Below, piece after piece: positions 11,701 to 20,643 of a DNA stretch of 39,253 nucleotides. Origin of the DNA: Marmoricola sp. (GTDB lineage Bacteria > Actinomycetota > Actinomycetes > Propionibacteriales > Nocardioidaceae); NCBI GenBank assembly GCA_036384455.1, contig DASVMH010000254.1:1-39253 (forward strand). The letters run 5' to 3'. The notes beneath the pieces were generated by a model. It saw nothing but the letters and a program-made list of their open reading frames with translations, was not told where the DNA came from and ran no database searches. The number at the start of each line of letters is the position of its first letter. The stretch's first letter is position 1. The position numbers and the translations under genes were made by a program.

Positions 11701-12747
11701 GTGGACTTCACCCTCGACGACGAACAGCGCGCGCTGCGCGACGCCGCCCGTGGCGTACTGAAGGGCTACGACCCTGAGCGACGCCGGACGGTCACCTCTT
11801 CGGATCCCGGCTACGACACCGCCGTATGGGAGCAACTCGCGCAGATGGGCCTGCTCGGGCTGCCTTTCGCCGAGGCTGATGGCGGCTCCGGCGCCGGGCC
11901 GGTCGAGGTCGCCGTGGTGGCGGAGGAGATCGGCCGGGTGCTCGCGCCCGAGCCGTACGTCGCCGCCGTCGCGCTCGCCGGGGGCATCGTCGCGGCGGCC
12001 GGCTCTTCAGAACAACGGGCATCGCTGCTCGGCGGACTGTCCGACGGCTCGTCGCTGCTCGCCTTCGCCCACGCAGGCGCGGACGGCACCGCGGAGCCGG
12101 TGATCCAGGGTGCAGCCGCATCCCAGATCGTGTGGCAGGTGGGCGACGACCTCTTCGTCGCCCCCGCTCCCTCCGATGCGACCGCCTACGCGACGTACGA
12201 CGGCGGCCGCGGCGCCCGCCTGACCTTCGACTCCGCGAGCGCCGCTCCGCTCGGCGCTCCGGGTGCCGCGACATCCGCCGTAGTCCGGACCGCCGTCGCG
12301 CGCGCCCAGATCGCGGCTTGCCACGAGGCCCTCGGCGCCATGGACACCGCGCTCTCCCTGACCACCGAATACCTCAAGACGCGTCAGCAGTTCGGCGTCA
12401 CCCTCAACCGCTTCCAGGCGCTCACCTTCCGCGCCGCCGACTGCTACACCTCGCTCGAGCTGACCCGCAGCATCGTCACCTGGGCGACCATGGTCGCCGC
12501 CGAGGGCACCGACGACGAGATCGTCGAGGCCGCCGCCCGTGCGAAGTTGCAGACCGCCCGCGCCGGCCGGCACATCGGCCAGGAGGCGATCCAGCTGCAC
12601 GGTGGCATCGGGATGACCGCGGAGTACGCCGTCGGCCACTACACCGCCCGCCTCACCGCCCTCAACCACTGGCTCGGCGACGCCTCCTCCCAGATCACCA
12701 CCCTCGCCTCCGCCCTCACCACCGACGTCCTCGACCCCCTGCGCTGA
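11701..12747 (+). CDS. Acyl-CoA dehydrogenase, small subunit (PimD-like)
   Basis: MDFTLDDEQ, RQQFG..L..FQAL, IQLHGGIGMT; shortened middle domain; 10 nt after partner gene. Confidence 0.9.
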   Translation: MDFTLDDEQRALRDAARGVLKGYDPERRRTVTSSDPGYDTAVWEQLAQMGLLGLPFAEADGGSGAGPVEVAVVAEEIGRVLAPEPYVAAVALAGGIVAAAGSSEQRASLLGGLSDGSSLLAFAHAGADGTAEPVIQGAAASQIVWQVGDDLFVAPAPSDATAYATYDGGRGARLTFDSASAAPLGAPGAATSAVVRTAVARAQIAACHEALGAMDTALSLTTEYLKTRQQFGVTLNRFQALTFRAADCYTSLELTRSIVTWATMVAAEGTDDEIVEAAARAKLQTARAGRHIGQEAIQLHGGIGMTAEYAVGHYTARLTALNHWLGDASSQITTLASALTTDVLDPLR

Positions 12748-12797
12748 GACCCCAAAACTCTGACGCGTTTTCGCGCTGAGACCCCAAAACTCTGACG
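12741..12797. repeat. Tandem 25-bp direct repeat, 32-bp period
   Basis: GCGCTGAGACCCCAAAACTCTGACG is identical at 12741-12765 and 12773-12797. Confidence 0.9.
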
Positions 12798-13121
12798 GTT
12801 GCGGTGGTGGGCCGCCTCGCGGTGGCCCTGCGGGCCGCACGGGGTTGCGGCACGGACCCGGGTTCTCGTCACATTCCGGTGGCCGAACGTGTCGATACCC
12901 CCGTGCGTAACCCGAAGGCGTAGCCCAGCCGGACGGTGAGCCGTAGGGCCTGCGTGCCCAGGTACCGCAACCGACTACGGCGAGTAGCCAGCTTTCGCGT
13001 TTCACACCGGTCAGCTGCGCCGGCCGGTGCGCCGCGCGACCAGCCCGGGGATGCATCCAGCTCGGCGCGCGCGGAAGTCCGCAAGAAGATGGGATCTGCC
13101 TTTGCAGACAAGGCGAATCCC
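12796..13121 (+). ncRNA. Candidate structured non-coding RNA (or ssDNA structure) upstream of HNH gene
   Basis: Nested stems 12796-12805/12964-12973, 12824-12833/12941-12950, 12836-12844/12899-12907, 12848-12854/12888-12894, plus hairpins 13005-13029, 13032-13074, 13091-13121. Non-WC pairs in the stems read as G-U on the + strand. Confidence 0.55.
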
Positions 13122-13130
13122 AGCGGTTTG

Positions 13131-13152
13131 TGTCGGTGGTCGAACCTAGAAT
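13131..13152 (+). promoter_or_regulatory. PafBC-dependent (RecA-NDp type) DNA-damage promoter
   Basis: TGTCGG-TGGTCGAACC-TA-GAA-T matches the TGTCGG-N10-TA-N3-T consensus exactly; ATG 7 nt downstream. Confidence 0.8.
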
Positions 13153-13159
13153 TGGTCAC

Positions 13160-14515
13160 ATGTTCTCGGGCACCAACACCCTCGATCGACCCCACGGCCA
13201 CCGGGCCGTGCGGCCGGTCGATGACAGTGCTGCGGGCCAGGTGTTGGCCTCAGCACGTGAGCATCGTCGGATCTCCCAGGCCGCCGAAGCGGCACTGCTG
13301 GGAGATGTGTTGGCCTGGTGTGAGCTGCATGTCACCGACGACCCGGATGAGGGTGCGACCTGGGGTGACGTCCCGGTGCACCTGGGCGGCCAGGGGTGTC
13401 CGTGGGTGCGGGAGTTCACGATCACCGAACTCGCCGCCGGGTTGGGTCTCTCCCTCCCTGCGGCTCGGGGTCTGGTCTCTGATGTGTTGGAGATGGCGTT
13501 CCGGCTCCCCAGGCTGTGGGCACGGGTCCACGACGGTGGCCTCGCCTCGTGGCGGGCGCGGCGGATCGCCGCCCAGACCCAGACCCTCACCCTTGAGGCC
13601 GCGGGGTTCGTCGATGCCCAGGTGGCACCGTTCGCCGACAAGCTGGGTGCGGTCGCGGTCGAACGGGCCGTGGAGGACGCAACCATCCGATACATGCCCG
13701 ACGTAGCCCGTGCACAGCGTGAGGCTGCGGCTGATGGGCGCCGTTTCGACGTTGACCGGTTCCAGGTGTCTTTTGTCGGCACCAGTCGTATCGAGGGGGA
13801 ACTGGATCTGGCTGATGCGGTCGACCTGGACCACGCCATCGCCACCATCGCCGAAGACCTCAAGACCCTCTACCCCGACCTGCCGTTGGACCAACGCCGC
13901 GCAATGGCCGCCGGACAACTCGCACGACGACAGCTCGGACTACCAGAACCCGTAGCCAACCGCGTCGAGACCCAGCCGGCGTCTCGACACGCTGGACGTA
14001 CGGGCGAGCGCCGCGACGTGATCCTCTACGCCCACCTCTCGTCAGATGCCGTCCTCTCCCTTGAGGGACACAGCAACCCGATCCTCACCCCCGACGCGTT
14101 CCGCGACCTGCTGGACATTCCGAGCGACGTGCATCTGACCGTGCGCCCGGTGATCGATCTGAACGCGAACCTGACCAGCAGCGGCCGCTTCGCCACCGAC
14201 CTGCAACGCGTACAAATCACGCTGCGCGATCGGACCTGCGCCGCCCCGTACTGCCAACACCCCGCCCGCCACCTCGACCTCGACCACATCGACGCCTGGG
14301 ACGACACCGGACCACCCGGAGTCTCGACAAGCTCGACCAGCGAAAGACGCTCGACGGAGAGTGCGAACCTCGCGCCCCTGTGCCGACATCACCACCGCGC
14401 CAAAACATTCACCGGCTGGACCTACCAACAACTGGTCCCCGGCGTGTTCCTCTGGGAATCACCGCACGGACTACACCACCTCACCTACACCGGCCACACC
14501 CTCGCGCTCGACTGA
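13160..14515 (+). CDS. DUF222 / HNH endonuclease (REP13E12-like)
   Basis: ELAAGLGLS...RLPRLW...WRARRIA N-terminal DUF222-like region; C-terminal RDRTCAAPYC...DLDH...NLAPLCRHHHRAKT...W HNH/zinc motif. Confidence 0.9.
   Translation: MFSGTNTLDRPHGHRAVRPVDDSAAGQVLASAREHRRISQAAEAALLGDVLAWCELHVTDDPDEGATWGDVPVHLGGQGCPWVREFTITELAAGLGLSLPAARGLVSDVLEMAFRLPRLWARVHDGGLASWRARRIAAQTQTLTLEAAGFVDAQVAPFADKLGAVAVERAVEDATIRYMPDVARAQREAAADGRRFDVDRFQVSFVGTSRIEGELDLADAVDLDHAIATIAEDLKTLYPDLPLDQRRAMAAGQLARRQLGLPEPVANRVETQPASRHAGRTGERRDVILYAHLSSDAVLSLEGHSNPILTPDAFRDLLDIPSDVHLTVRPVIDLNANLTSSGRFATDLQRVQITLRDRTCAAPYCQHPARHLDLDHIDAWDDTGPPGVSTSSTSERRSTESANLAPLCRHHHRAKTFTGWTYQQLVPGVFLWESPHGLHHLTYTGHTLALD
13961..13992. repeat. 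REP-like palindrome inside HNH gene
   Basis: GTCGAGAC (13964-13971) / GTCTCGAC (13981-13988) inverted repeat. Confidence 0.5.
14321..14342. repeat. REP-like element inside HNH motif
   Basis: GTCTCGACAAGCTCGACCAGCG, translated VSTSSTS; resembles (from recall) a common actinobacterial intergenic repeat. Confidence 0.55.
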
Positions 14516-14548
14516 GCCCTGACCACGCCGACGGGTACCGTTCCTGGC

Positions 14549-15172
14549 ATGGGCGAGACTGCAAGCCTCGGGGTCGTTCTGCTCTGGCACGGGCGAGGTC
14601 CCAATGAGGCAGCTTCTCTCGCAACGCTGGCGACCGCGCTCGAGCACCGCGGGTTCCTCACCATCGCCCCCAACTGGGACTCCACATCCGCCGACTGCGG
14701 TCGGACCACGTTGATGGCCTCGCTCGAGCAGGCTTTGGCCACAGCAACGCGAGCGAACACTGGGTTGACCGTCGCGGGCTGGTCGATGGGCGGCACGGCC
14801 GCCCTGTCCCTCGCGCGTACCGGATCCACGTTACCCACGGTCGAGCGCGTGGTCGGGTTGGCCGCCGACGTTCACAAACCCTCGGTTTTGGACGGCCGCG
14901 CACCGATCGGGGAGGCCACGGACGCGTTGATGATGCGCGTCCATCTCGTGCACGGGCGGCAGGACACGGTGGTGCCGGTGGAGTTGACCGAACGCTTCGC
15001 AGCGCGCAACCCCGACATGTGCGAGATGACCCTCGTCGACTCCGACCATGCCGGAGTTATCGGCACGGCGTACGACGAGAGGGCCGGCCTTTGTCGACCG
15101 AGCAGTGAGCCGAGCGCGCAGGCAGGGCTGCGCGCGGCGGTGGCCGCGATCACGGGCGAGACGGCCCGCTAA
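14549..15172 (+). CDS. Alpha/beta hydrolase
   Basis: LWHG, nucleophile elbow GWSMGG, VHGRQDTVVP, C-terminal DH. Confidence 0.85.
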   Translation: MGETASLGVVLLWHGRGPNEAASLATLATALEHRGFLTIAPNWDSTSADCGRTTLMASLEQALATATRANTGLTVAGWSMGGTAALSLARTGSTLPTVERVVGLAADVHKPSVLDGRAPIGEATDALMMRVHLVHGRQDTVVPVELTERFAARNPDMCEMTLVDSDHAGVIGTAYDERAGLCRPSSEPSAQAGLRAAVAAITGETAR

Positions 15173-17190: not shown

Positions 17191-18590
17191 CCGTAGACCG
17201 TCTCGGATCCGTCGGAGTCCTTGCCGATCTTGCGGGCCAGGAAGAGCCCTTCGAGGGCGAGCTCGATCGCGCTGGCGCGCTCGCCTTCATCGGTGGCACC
17301 CAGCCGATCCATGACCTGGTCGTAGACGTCGGACTCCCCCAGCACCGGCAGGCCGGCCAGGAAGTCGCGGGCCGTGACCTGGGCACCGGTCGAGATGGTG
17401 GCGCCGTTCTCGACCGCGTCGACGAGCAGGGCGAGGTCGATGCCGCCGAGGTGCGCGCTCACGGTCTGGGCGATCGCGACCCGGAGCAGGTGCTCGAGCA
17501 CCTCTGCCTCGCGGCCCTCCTCACCGGTCTCGAACTCGATCTTGCCGCCGAGCACATCGACGGCGGTCTCGAGATCCACGACCCGCGCGACGGCGCGATC
17601 CTCACCCCGCACGGTGCCGCGATGCAACGCGGCCGCAGCGATCGTCTCCGCTCCCGCGATGGCGAAGCGCGCGGAGACGCCGGAGCGCTGATCGACGGCG
17701 TTGGACTCGCGCAGCTGTCGGGTGAAGCGGGCGAGCACCTCGATGAGGTGGTCGGGCACGACCGCGACGAGCTCCGCCTCCTGCCTGATCACCGCGACCT
17801 CGTCCTCGATCTGCGTGGGGTAATGGGTGCGGATCTCGGCGCCGAAGCGGTCCTTGAGCGGGGTGATGATCCGGCCGCGGTTGGTGTAGTCCTCGGGGTT
17901 GGCGCTGGCCAGCACGAGTACGTCGAGGGGCAGCCGCAGGACGTACCCGCGGATCTGGATGTCGCGTTCCTCCATCACGTTGAGCATCGCGACCTGGATG
18001 CGCTCGGCGAGATCGGGAAGCTCGTTGATCGCGACGATCCCCCGGTGGCTGCGCGGGATCAGCCCGAAGTGGATCGTCTCCGGGTCGCCGAGCGATCGCC
18101 CCTCGGCGACCTTCATCGGGTCGACGTCGCCGATCAGGTCGGCCACCGACGTGTCGGGGGTGGCGAGCTTCTCGGCGTACCGCTCACTGCGGTGTCGCCA
18201 CGCCACCGGCAACTCGTCGCCCTCGGTCTCGGCACGCCGCTTGGACCCGACCGTGATCGGTTCGTACGGGTGCTCGCCGAGCTCGCTGCCCTCGATGGCC
18301 GGTGTCCACTCGTCGAGCAGGCCGACCATCGTGCGCAGCAGCCGGGTCTTGCCCTGGCCACGCTCGCCGAGCAGCACGATGTCGTGGCCGGCGATCAGGG
18401 CCCGCTCGAGCTGCGGGATCACGGTGTCGTCGAGGCCGTGGAGGCCGGGCCACGGATCCTCGCCGGCGGCCAGCTTCGCGAGCAGGTTGTCGCGGATCTC
18501 CTCACGCAGCGTCTTGAGCTCGTGACCGCTCGCGCGGAGCTGGCCGAGGGTCCGGGCGGTGGGCATCGGCGAAGACATCTGTTCCGTCAC
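17187..18590 (-). CDS. AAA+ ATPase, Mg-chelatase ChlI-like (Rv0958-like)
   Basis: Walker A GERGQGKT, Walker B-like VAINEL, ASANPEDY, PLKDRFG. GTG 18590 lies 7 nt after a TAGCGT -10. Confidence 0.88.
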   Translation of the reverse strand: MTEQMSSPMPTARTLGQLRASGHELKTLREEIRDNLLAKLAAGEDPWPGLHGLDDTVIPQLERALIAGHDIVLLGERGQGKTRLLRTMVGLLDEWTPAIEGSELGEHPYEPITVGSKRRAETEGDELPVAWRHRSERYAEKLATPDTSVADLIGDVDPMKVAEGRSLGDPETIHFGLIPRSHRGIVAINELPDLAERIQVAMLNVMEERDIQIRGYVLRLPLDVLVLASANPEDYTNRGRIITPLKDRFGAEIRTHYPTQIEDEVAVIRQEAELVAVVPDHLIEVLARFTRQLRESNAVDQRSGVSARFAIAGAETIAAAALHRGTVRGEDRAVARVVDLETAVDVLGGKIEFETGEEGREAEVLEHLLRVAIAQTVSAHLGGIDLALLVDAVENGATISTGAQVTARDFLAGLPVLGESDVYDQVMDRLGATDEGERASAIELALEGLFLARKIGKDSDGSETVYG

Positions 18591-18684
18591 ATGCTCCACG
18601 CTAGTCCGCCCGCGCAATCCGCCGAATCGACCCGCACGGACGGGCGGCGCGGTAACGTGCGTAGGCGTTAGGCAGGTGGGACCG

Positions 18685-20643
18685 ATGTTCGGGCGGATCG
18701 GAGCGAGGGCTCGTGGGGCGACGCTGGTCGCCGCCCTCGCCGTCAGCGCAGTCTCGTTCGCCCCGGTCGCCCACGCGGCGGCGACGAGTCGGCCACTCCA
18801 GATCGGACCGTCCGCGCAGGACCTGGTGACCGTCGGAGGCACCGCGTACTTCATCGCCGACGACGGCGTCCACGGCAACCAGCTGTGGCGGAGCAACGGC
18901 ACGGCCGCCGGCACCAGCATGGTCAAGGACATCAAGCCTGGTGCGGTGACGACCGCGAGCGGCCTGATCGATGTCGACGGCACCTTGTTCTTCTTCGTCA
19001 GGGACGGCACATCGGGCAACAAGCTGTGGAAGTCCGACGGCACCCCGGCCGGCACCAGCCTTGTCAAGAACATCAACCAGGGCAGCTCGCGCGGCCTTCC
19101 GTACGCACTCACCGAGGTCGCCGGGGCGTTGTACTTCGTGGCCAAGGACAGCACCCGCGGCTTCGAGCTCTGGAAGAGCGACGGCACGAAGGCCGGCACA
19201 ACCCTGGTCGCCGTCACGGATCCCGCGAGCGACGAGCGCGGTCCGCAGGACCTCACCGCCGTCGGCAGCACGCTCTACTTCAACGACGGCGACGCCACTC
19301 ACGGTTACGAGCTGTGGAAGAGCGATGGCACCGACACCACACTCGTCAAGGACATCGACCCCGGCAGCGACAGCTCCGACCCGACGAACCTCACCGACTT
19401 CGCGGGCACGCTCTACTTCAACGCGAACGACGGCACCCACGGCGCCGAACTCTGGTCGAGCGACGGCACCGACACCACACTCGTCAAGGACATCGACCCC
19501 GGAGTAGGTAATGGCGGCCGCGGGCCCGAGGAACTGACCGTCGTCGGCAACGAGCTCTACTTCACGACAGACGACGGCACCCACGGCACCGAGCTGTGGC
19601 GCAGCGACAGCGCCGGCACCACACTCGTCAAGGACATCACCAGCGGCACAGCGGGCCGCGGGCCGCAGGATCTCACCGACGTGGCCGGTCGCCTGTACTT
19701 CGTCGCGGACGACGGCACCCACGGGTACGAGCCATGGACCAGCGACGGCAGCACGAACGGCACGTCTCTGCTCAAGGACATCGACCCCGGCAGCAGCGGC
19801 AGCGTCCCGAATGGCTTCACCGCCGCCGGCGGCTCGGTCTACTTCACCGCGGACGACGGTACGCACGGCTCTGAACTCTGGCGCAGCGACGGTACGCCCG
19901 GCGGAACCGCTCTCTTCCAGGACATCGACCCCGGCGGCGAAGGCAGCCACCCCACCGTCCTGGCGGCCAAGGGCAGCACGCTGCTCCTCGACCTCACGCA
20001 GGGGGCGTGCACCGGGTTGTGGAGCCTCGACACCGCGGCGACCGAGGACACCACGCCACCGGTGCGGCTCCTCAGTAGCACACACGACGTCACCGCGGGC
20101 ACCGTCACCGTCGACGTCGGCACGCCCACCGGCGGGCGGATCACCGTCAGCGGGGCGGATGTGCAGAAGCGCTGGGCCGGCACCGGCTGCGCGGACACTG
20201 CGTCAGTCGAGCTGAGGCCCAACAAGGCGGGCCTCGCGATCCTGCGGAGCAAGCACCGCTTCACCACCACTCTCACCTTCGCGTTCCAGCCGTCGATCGG
20301 CCCAGCGGCCGCGTCGGTCCAGCGGAAGTACACCTTCGAGGTCACGCCCGCCAAGATCGTCAGGTCCGAGGCACACCCGAAGAACGGGACCCGCACCGTC
20401 TGGGTCCAGGTCCCCTCCGGGGGGCGACTCGCCCTCGCCGCGACCGGCACATGGGGTGTCAAGAAGGTCACCAGGAGCGCCCTCCACGCGGGCACCGTCA
20501 AGCTCACCATCACGCCCACGCGGGCCACCGCCCACAAGCTTCGTCAGCGGCACCACCTGAAAGTCCGGGTCCGGTTGAGCTACACCCCCGCCCAGGGCGT
20601 CACCACCAGTCAGACCCGCGTCTACACACTCGTCCGGAAGTAG
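18685..20643 (+). CDS. Secreted ELWxxDGT-repeat protein
   Basis: Signal peptide (AHA-A); 8-9 repeats of about 47 aa (YF.A.DG.HG.ELW.SDGT...LVKDI); basic C-terminal domains. Confidence 0.9.
   Translation: MFGRIGARARGATLVAALAVSAVSFAPVAHAAATSRPLQIGPSAQDLVTVGGTAYFIADDGVHGNQLWRSNGTAAGTSMVKDIKPGAVTTASGLIDVDGTLFFFVRDGTSGNKLWKSDGTPAGTSLVKNINQGSSRGLPYALTEVAGALYFVAKDSTRGFELWKSDGTKAGTTLVAVTDPASDERGPQDLTAVGSTLYFNDGDATHGYELWKSDGTDTTLVKDIDPGSDSSDPTNLTDFAGTLYFNANDGTHGAELWSSDGTDTTLVKDIDPGVGNGGRGPEELTVVGNELYFTTDDGTHGTELWRSDSAGTTLVKDITSGTAGRGPQDLTDVAGRLYFVADDGTHGYEPWTSDGSTNGTSLLKDIDPGSSGSVPNGFTAAGGSVYFTADDGTHGSELWRSDGTPGGTALFQDIDPGGEGSHPTVLAAKGSTLLLDLTQGACTGLWSLDTAATEDTTPPVRLLSSTHDVTAGTVTVDVGTPTGGRITVSGADVQKRWAGTGCADTASVELRPNKAGLAILRSKHRFTTTLTFAFQPSIGPAAASVQRKYTFEVTPAKIVRSEAHPKNGTRTVWVQVPSGGRLALAATGTWGVKKVTRSALHAGTVKLTITPTRATAHKLRQRHHLKVRVRLSYTPAQGVTTSQTRVYTLVRK

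Follow-up and report, generated by a model that had tools for sequence, protein, structure and literature searches.

A stretch of 39,253 nt from Marmoricola sp. (assembly GCA_036384455.1, contig DASVMH010000254.1, positions 1 to 39,253 of the forward strand), hereafter the window, carries a DUF222-like/HNH gene and upstream DNA that an initial annotation had described as ~330 nt of nested self-complementary sequence, possibly the RNA part of an RNA-associated nuclease or mobile element. Actinobacteria carry many genes of the 13E12/DUF222-HNH type, which are hotspots of recombination and whose mode of spread has remained undefined. The gene (13160..14515, + strand, predicted to be leaderless) encodes 451 aa and lies downstream of an acyl-CoA dehydrogenase (ACAD) gene of the host flank (11701..12747, +; Pfam Acyl-CoA_dh_1 and _N). 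Between them, beyond a short tandem repeat, are a local hairpin (12840..12914, no strand assigned) enclosing a degenerate palindrome (12876-12903) of the repetitive extragenic palindrome (REP)-like type, a diverged HNH-associated non-coding element, which we call the arm (12878..13031, +; core 12906-12982 well supported), a promoter-proximal palindrome of the CCYT..ARGG type (13090..13122, no strand assigned), which is a candidate operator, and a PafBC promoter motif, TGTCGG-N10-TA-N3-T (13131..13152, +). Below, G000 denotes the assembly containing the window, other G numbers the genomes of relatives, and L numbers loci of the gene family.

The exact PafBC motif reported in the initial annotation was confirmed. 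It was the only one in the window, where 0.03 were expected, and the G000 genome held 21 against 1.1 expected, the motif being taken as it appears in the available text of PMC8151990 and PMC8635444. Two adjacent WYL genes on C85 were read as pafBC. The ATG at 13160 lies 7 nt past the motif, and the 451-aa protein that starts there was exactly present in the protein collection, whereas a 461-aa form with a GTG start was absent. Promoter elements were called with what we take to be the LexA-box and DnaA-box consensus sequences. Among 83 family loci examined, the top of a list of more than 400 matches, 82 had a damage-type promoter: 70 were of the PafBC type (one mismatch allowed), with the ATG 6-7 nt downstream of the box, four were TGTCCC variants (assigned by eye), and eight had LexA boxes; the remaining locus had neither. 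In these eight members (L045, L150-L153, L160, L171, L173), the LexA box lies over the -10 region in place of the PafBC -26 element; L153, falsely called as PafBC-type, was left out of the PafBC count. Judging from these sequences, PafBC and LexA boxes appear to be two routes to damage control in the family. The unpublished genomes G030 (L028, L053) and G077 (L029) are included in the 70-, 62- and 29-locus counts given here, and no claim is made on them alone.

A CCYT..ARGG palindrome occurred within 60 nt upstream in 31 of the 70 loci, compared with 1.5 in shuffled sequences (the pattern was picked after seeing the data), and a DnaA-box-like 9-mer in 19 of the 70, compared with 0.9. These patterns were found at none of 69 loci further upstream and at none of 20 other PafBC-like boxes. 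The centre of the palindrome is DnaA-box-like in many relatives and degenerate in the window. Alignment of the paralogues placed the palindrome at the usual left edge of the unit common to them, and a search for it at the right end or inside the genes of 62 loci gave one downstream match and no internal one. The conserved unit comprises a DUF222-like/HNH gene, predicted to be leaderless, with a PafBC (or LexA) promoter and a short palindrome in front of it.

The window protein itself had no Pfam DUF222 (PF02720) match at E ≤ 0.1, and its HNH match was at E 0.088. It carries the DUF222/HNH label because its relatives match: among 55 aligned members, 40-69% identical to it, 23 matched DUF222 at E ≤ 0.01 and 31 matched HNH. 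What had been annotated as a leaderless DUF222-HNH gene was thus borne out in its open reading frame (ORF) and start, but not in a DUF222 match of its own. In the C-terminal HNH part, C360, C365, H376, N403, C408, H411 and H412 were invariant in the 55 aligned proteins, and a strict HNH motif was present in 43 of 62 genes. A structure model with a predicted local distance difference test score (pLDDT) of 85 gave weak matches (Z 5.3-6.2) to HNH nucleases, including TagI, McrA and the HNH of IscB (Z 5.7 over 66 residues); in the whole-model fold search, IscB was matched only at residues 347-431. Neither profile nor whole-model fold searches found a RuvC-like part, the guided_IscB profile gave no match for the window protein and matched two relatives over the HNH only (E at least 0.018), and Foldseek and sequence searches of the PDB returned nothing at E ≤ 0.001. 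The N-terminal half is helical; its matches to KorB (Z 5.2, root-mean-square deviation 3.7, 100 aligned) and Spo0J (Z 5.1, 3.3, 94 aligned) were near the level of unrelated structures. REP-like palindromes were found in frame inside 12 of 62 HNH-family genes (also in G000 C362:1-120), against 0 of 29 ACAD genes. The one in the window (14321..14343, +) is an insert in the HNH loop, where the pLDDT falls below 50 at residues 385-389, and it is missing from the same-cluster paralogue P0003.

The nested self-complementarity of the upstream ~330 nt was not borne out. The fold of 12798-13125 was little better than that of shuffled sequences (z -1.30 on the + strand, with 12 of 100 shuffles as good; z -2.07 on the - strand, with 7 of 100), and none of 14 sliding 80-nt segments fell below z -1.6. 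Two hand-picked hairpins stood out, at 12840-12914 (z -2.3, chosen after inspection) and at the palindrome 13089-13122 (z -3.0); the REP-like palindrome inside the former gave weak matches (E 0.064-2.7). The absence of a credible ORF, also claimed earlier, was upheld for 12798-13092, where the matches listed by six-frame tblastn were self matches and noise at E of at least 0.26. Rfam had no match at E ≤ 5 across 12500-14800, and on five arm loci it gave two chance-level matches, both outside the arms. Neither a sigma-70 promoter nor a terminator was found. BLASTN against 60 relatives and 400 family genomes returned short GC-rich matches only (in the family set, the best two candidates per genome were scored); the unpublished G136 and G164 gave only chance matches in the family set, and a match on C85 lay inside a WYL gene and was rejected as chance. 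With 68 homologue upstream regions, the best nhmmer match was at E 2.2, and a 16-nt pattern from the region had no exact match in 102 other genomes. At several loci, a co-directional neighbour gene ends ~40-100 nt from the promoter (crude ORF calls), and therefore there is no room for a large RNA at those loci. On this sequence evidence, a HEARO/omegaRNA-like structured RNA scaffold in the upstream DNA is not supported.

The view of this region as unique sequence was overturned by arm homologues beside other HNH genes. The arm is a conserved, T-poor, non-coding element of ~170-200 nt that lies beside HNH genes of this subfamily, with 53-75% identity among copies. A profile of 19 other copies, with the window excluded, matched 12906-12982 at E 9.2e-6, and the next match in the genome was at E 0.46. 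The arm was rejected as coding sequence, as no frame is open in all copies and single-base indels occur, and as a C-rich Rho loading site, as its G and C contents are equal. Contigs from three of four DNA runs of one study contained 12840/12895-13000 with 10 differences. In two runs, another 88 nt of differing sequence separate this segment from the start of a second HNH paralogue, and the N-terminal changes of that paralogue agree with P0003. Contig edges lay at 12840 in two runs, and the left base of the 12840-12914 hairpin coincides with the edge of the segment common to this second paralogue, which is either a second locus or an allele.

In G076, 15 arm matches were found, of which 12 were placed (six upstream of a start and six downstream of a stop) and three were cut by contig ends. 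HNH sequence was adjacent in seven of the placed copies (five by tblastn, two by eye), and the other five were assigned via a shared palindrome, leader or spacer; none of the 15 was clearly solo. Four of six metagenome loci had the arm, with five arms in all, since L116 has one on each side of its gene (L121 and L197 are a single sequence, which enters the count once). Every placed arm in G076 and the metagenome loci points outward, whereas the window arm points inward, towards the gene; in the closer relatives L115, L116, L120 and L121, the homologous stretch has the opposite orientation to that of the window. Identity between the upstream and the downstream arms is just 67%, and their outer ends are not sharp.

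The G000 assembly holds one arm copy. The profile search of 103 genus genomes found the arm in G000 (a training copy) and G076, with one weak match in G122; the same profile found it in none of 150 family genomes besides G000, and blastn, run without a positive control, in none of 401 genomes. Plasmids gave no match, and viral sequences gave 10 pattern matches, none of which scored as an arm. The arm is also absent at the closest paralogue C362 (84% identical to the window protein over 292 aligned residues), five G126 copies, L118, L119 and three G076 gene ends; C362 and the five G126 copies have open frames and the same architecture. This narrow distribution limits the arm's reach. The co-occurrence of the upstream DNA with HNH genes, which the initial annotation had raised, thus holds in that the core travels with them, but not at most family loci. 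By alignment, the arm would be a new, lineage-restricted inverted element. A second, outward arm at 12798-12877 was considered and rejected as not significant (45 of 200 shuffles were as good). Subsets of the G079 copies (L134-L140, L038) share G/T-rich upstream repeats of their own, which parallel the arm within that lineage.

Family matches were found in 89 of the 103 genus genomes, at 0 to 16 per genome, and paralogues clustered by genome in a quick tree; L117 is frameshifted, and L034, L155 and L166 are likewise frameshifted or truncated. ACAD orthologues were present in 77 of the 103 genomes. In the comparison of orthologous ACAD loci that the initial annotation suggested, no HNH match lay downstream of any of the 29 others; the sequence covered was usually 1.5 kb, less in three cases, and was lengthened to 2.8-8.5 kb in 14. 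ACAD-vWA synteny was kept in only one of the 14 extended loci, and for this reason no exact empty site was obtained. In G126, an HNH copy lies between two genes, presumably thrB and rho, that are adjacent in all seven relatives fetched of the 16 that matched. The rho-like gene that follows the thrB-like one in L209-L215 has an A/C-rich leader of ~200 nt with loose conservation, which may be an autoregulatory Rho loading region. Flanks shared by the eight G079 copies are ragged, extending 33-233 nt upstream and ending -84 to +58 nt around the stop, and those in G035 are ragged as well. Neither a direct repeat (target duplication) nor a terminal inverted repeat was found at fixed positions in 21 paralogue copies. 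A 94-bp direct repeat of 88% identity brackets the HNH copy at L143, with one unit ~160-65 nt ahead of the promoter and the other 150-240 nt beyond the stop, and resembles a long target duplication that has aged. The same host sites, which we take to be the ends of a tilS-like and a UDG-like gene, are held by different HNH clades (L024, L027, L030, L147; L033, L050, L137, L145).

The family genes also share a strand bias. Keto skew at four-fold sites drops from 5' to 3' (G/T-rich to C/A-rich) in 57 of 62 family genes, with a median drop of 0.47 compared with 0.05 (standard deviation 0.19) in 374 host genes; pooled flanks of the family genes have no such skew. The outward strand of the arms has A 0.27 and T 0.06 on both sides of the gene, which matches the polarity of this mirror skew and counts for copying in by repair. 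The window arm has A 0.16 and T 0.15 and the longest branch among the copies; 13 of its 49 changes are to T, against 43 of 458 in other copies, and changes to T and A number 13 and 3, against 43 and 139 elsewhere (Fisher p 7e-6, with copies that are not independent).

Taken together, we put the probability at about 55% that the locus is a copy of a multicopy, probably selfish DUF222/13E12-like HNH cassette, likely damage-induced and likely spreading by copy-in through recombinational break repair, and, jointly with this, that the ~330 nt upstream are pieced together from DNA repeats around a non-coding arm that travels with such cassettes and shows no conserved RNA fold. Ragged ends together with a damage promoter and an intact HNH would be explained most simply by copy-in during recombinational repair. 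PafBC would induce the cassette gene after DNA damage, the helical N-terminal half of the protein would bind DNA, possibly at the upstream palindrome, and the HNH domain would nick or cut a putative target. Two-ended repair synthesis from a cassette-bearing template would then copy the cassette with a variable length of flank. In these cycles, the left top strand and the right bottom strand would be exposed as single strands, giving T/G-rich left and A/C-rich right halves. Cytosine deamination in single-stranded DNA is established chemistry and would give such a mirror skew. Arms and REP-like repeats would be co-copied as riders and may supply homology, and the window arm was likely flipped once and then drifted to the composition of its new position. 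The gene-conversion and recombination hotspots at 13E12 loci in the available text on M. tuberculosis (PMC13061034, PMC13157036) count for this reading as well. Of the RNA-associated nuclease or mobile element first proposed, a mobile multicopy HNH gene with a damage promoter motif remains; the RNA scaffold is not supported, as no fold is conserved on either strand.

Several points weigh against copy-in. No near-identical empty site was found, so that no junction is resolved; the five G126 copies end 0-6 nt from the stop codon, which is sharper than co-conversion predicts, and the ragged ends could be later erosion. The window gene's own skew drop, 0.34, is equalled by 5.3% of host genes, the related genes are not independent, and the skew could stem from selection on RNA or single-stranded DNA folding or from transcription-linked mutation. 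Sites held by different clades are explained either as hotspots or by gene conversion of old copies. The 2-5 GYAACC-like motifs kept in each arm copy suggest more than passive cargo, and the likeness of the modelled N-terminal half to the KorB/ParB DNA-binding domain is weak. A bolder scheme, which we offer tentatively as a less likely reading, is that DUF222-HNH cassettes form a transposase-free mobile class in which a damage-induced ParB-like/HNH protein recognises the palindrome and the iterated GYAACC sites in long inverted arms, cuts, and is copied to other chromosomal sites by two-ended repair synthesis, leaving the mirror mutation bias. If true, the spread of the 13E12 family, so far unexplained, would have a mechanism open to testing. 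A related possibility, which we consider rather doubtful, is that the arms are functional element ends, i.e., long imperfect inverted repeats whose GYAACC sites are bound by the protein in a transposase-free arm-gene-arm unit. The outward direction of all 12 placed G076 copies and of the five metagenome arms, with L116 having both, the lack of a clearly solo arm and the GYAACC-like motifs argue for such ends, but the arms are optional (none at C362, the five G126 copies, L118, L119 and the three G076 gene ends), those upstream and downstream differ by a third of their positions, the outer ends are unsharp, and the window copy faces inward.

The arm might instead be an independent non-autonomous mini-element, of the miniature inverted-repeat transposable element or REP type, that prefers HNH cassettes as landing sites. 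Its presence on either side and in either orientation fits this, as does the gathering of REP-like repeats in HNH genes rather than ACAD genes, but the lack of clearly solo copies in G076, the single copy in the G000 assembly and the strictly outward orientation outside this species make it unlikely. Quite unlikely, too, is that gene conversion has homogenised what are in fact old host paralogues for DNA repair, with no active mobility. A repair role for 13E12 HNH genes is proposed in the available text of PMC4181829, damage promoters and active-site residues are conserved, and some sites are common to several clades; given sites are nevertheless patchily occupied, copy number ranges from 0 to 16 matches, and frameshifted or truncated copies occur. 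We leave very little probability for the arm being transcribed into an RNA that partners the HNH protein or serves as its guide scaffold. In its favour are a non-coding, conserved element tied to HNH genes, its recurrence ahead of the second paralogue in reads from the same population, the IscB-like HNH fold, and a weak helix on the U-rich strand: 3 of 34 pairs were compensated there in a 10-copy alignment (0 of 23 on the other strand), and the consensus energy of each strand in a 20-copy alignment was equalled by only one of 25 column shuffles. Against it, the 20-copy alignment had structure conservation indices of 0.01 and 0.12 and no compensated pairs, and single copies folded at z from -1.7 to +2.9 (12 copies, both strands). 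The arm also occurs on both sides and in both orientations, is missing from most family loci, and is located ahead of a promoter from which transcription is predicted to begin at the ATG; no Rfam match, RuvC-like part or guided_IscB match above the cut-off accompanies it.

The window cassette belongs to the known 13E12 family, and the inverted arm is the new part. Like free-standing HNH homing endonucleases, the cassette is a lone HNH gene in intergenic positions that are patchily occupied, with flanks of variable length that are presumably copied along. Homing endonucleases use one allelic site, whereas the window family occupies many unrelated sites per chromosome and has a host damage promoter. 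In REP/BIME (bacterial interspersed mosaic element) systems with RAYT (TnpA-REP), a nuclease gene with an HUH tyrosine enzyme is flanked by inverted non-coding repeats; the window family shares inverted non-coding flanks, but its enzyme is HNH, not HUH, and its arms, at ~170 nt, are neither hairpins nor genome-dispersed. With the OMEGA IscB-omegaRNA/HEARO systems, it shares the HNH fold and conserved non-coding DNA adjoining the nuclease gene, and differs in that no RNA fold is conserved, position and strand vary, no RuvC-like part was detected and the non-coding element is optional. The mycobacterial REP13E12/13E12 family (DUF222 PF02720 plus HNH PF01844) is closest: both are multicopy, with a ~450-aa helical-plus-HNH gene. 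According to the available text, 13E12 genes are LexA-bound or have a RecA-independent (PafBC-type) promoter and are damage-induced (PMC3381160), and in M. tuberculosis their loci, of undefined function, are frequent gene-conversion hotspots (PMC13061034) and lie at inversion breakpoints (PMC13157036). The window protein differs in lacking a PF02720 match, and its subfamily in the inverted non-coding arm and the palindrome at the promoter, for which the literature searched offered no description. In that literature (largely open access, main texts), no description of such arms or of a 13E12 spread mechanism was found, and the available text of PMC10589994 and PMC3592412 added no mechanism for 13E12-type genes. 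The locus argues against one hypothesis, that of a large RNA scaffold, and offers cis parts open to testing, namely the promoter palindrome, the optional inverted arm, the ragged ends and the mirror skew.

The 25-bp tandem repeat noted earlier after the ACAD stop was confirmed as two identical copies (12741-12765 and 12773-12797, period 32), which belong to two 32-bp units of a dispersed repeat (12741..12797, +), half an element outside the HNH unit. Genome-wide, G000 has 67 copies in 28 clusters, of which only that of the window lies near an HNH-family gene; the repeat is not specific to the HNH element. It is a species-specific palindromic mini-element of 32-bp units in inverted arrays, with a central hairpin in many copies, and other clusters include those on C60, C64, C85 and C228. 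Four copies (C167, C168, C231, C277) adjoin one common further sequence, which we take to resemble an insertion sequence end, and hence the dispersed repeat may be a landing site. To the right of the HNH gene lies an alpha/beta hydrolase-like gene (14549..15172, +; Pfam Hydrolase_4 at E 3.5e-5, below the cut-off), which is not common to the paralogues. Farther downstream, 18559-20643 (+) encodes a probable secreted protein with about five repeats of 46-48 aa, presumably of the ELWxSDGT type.

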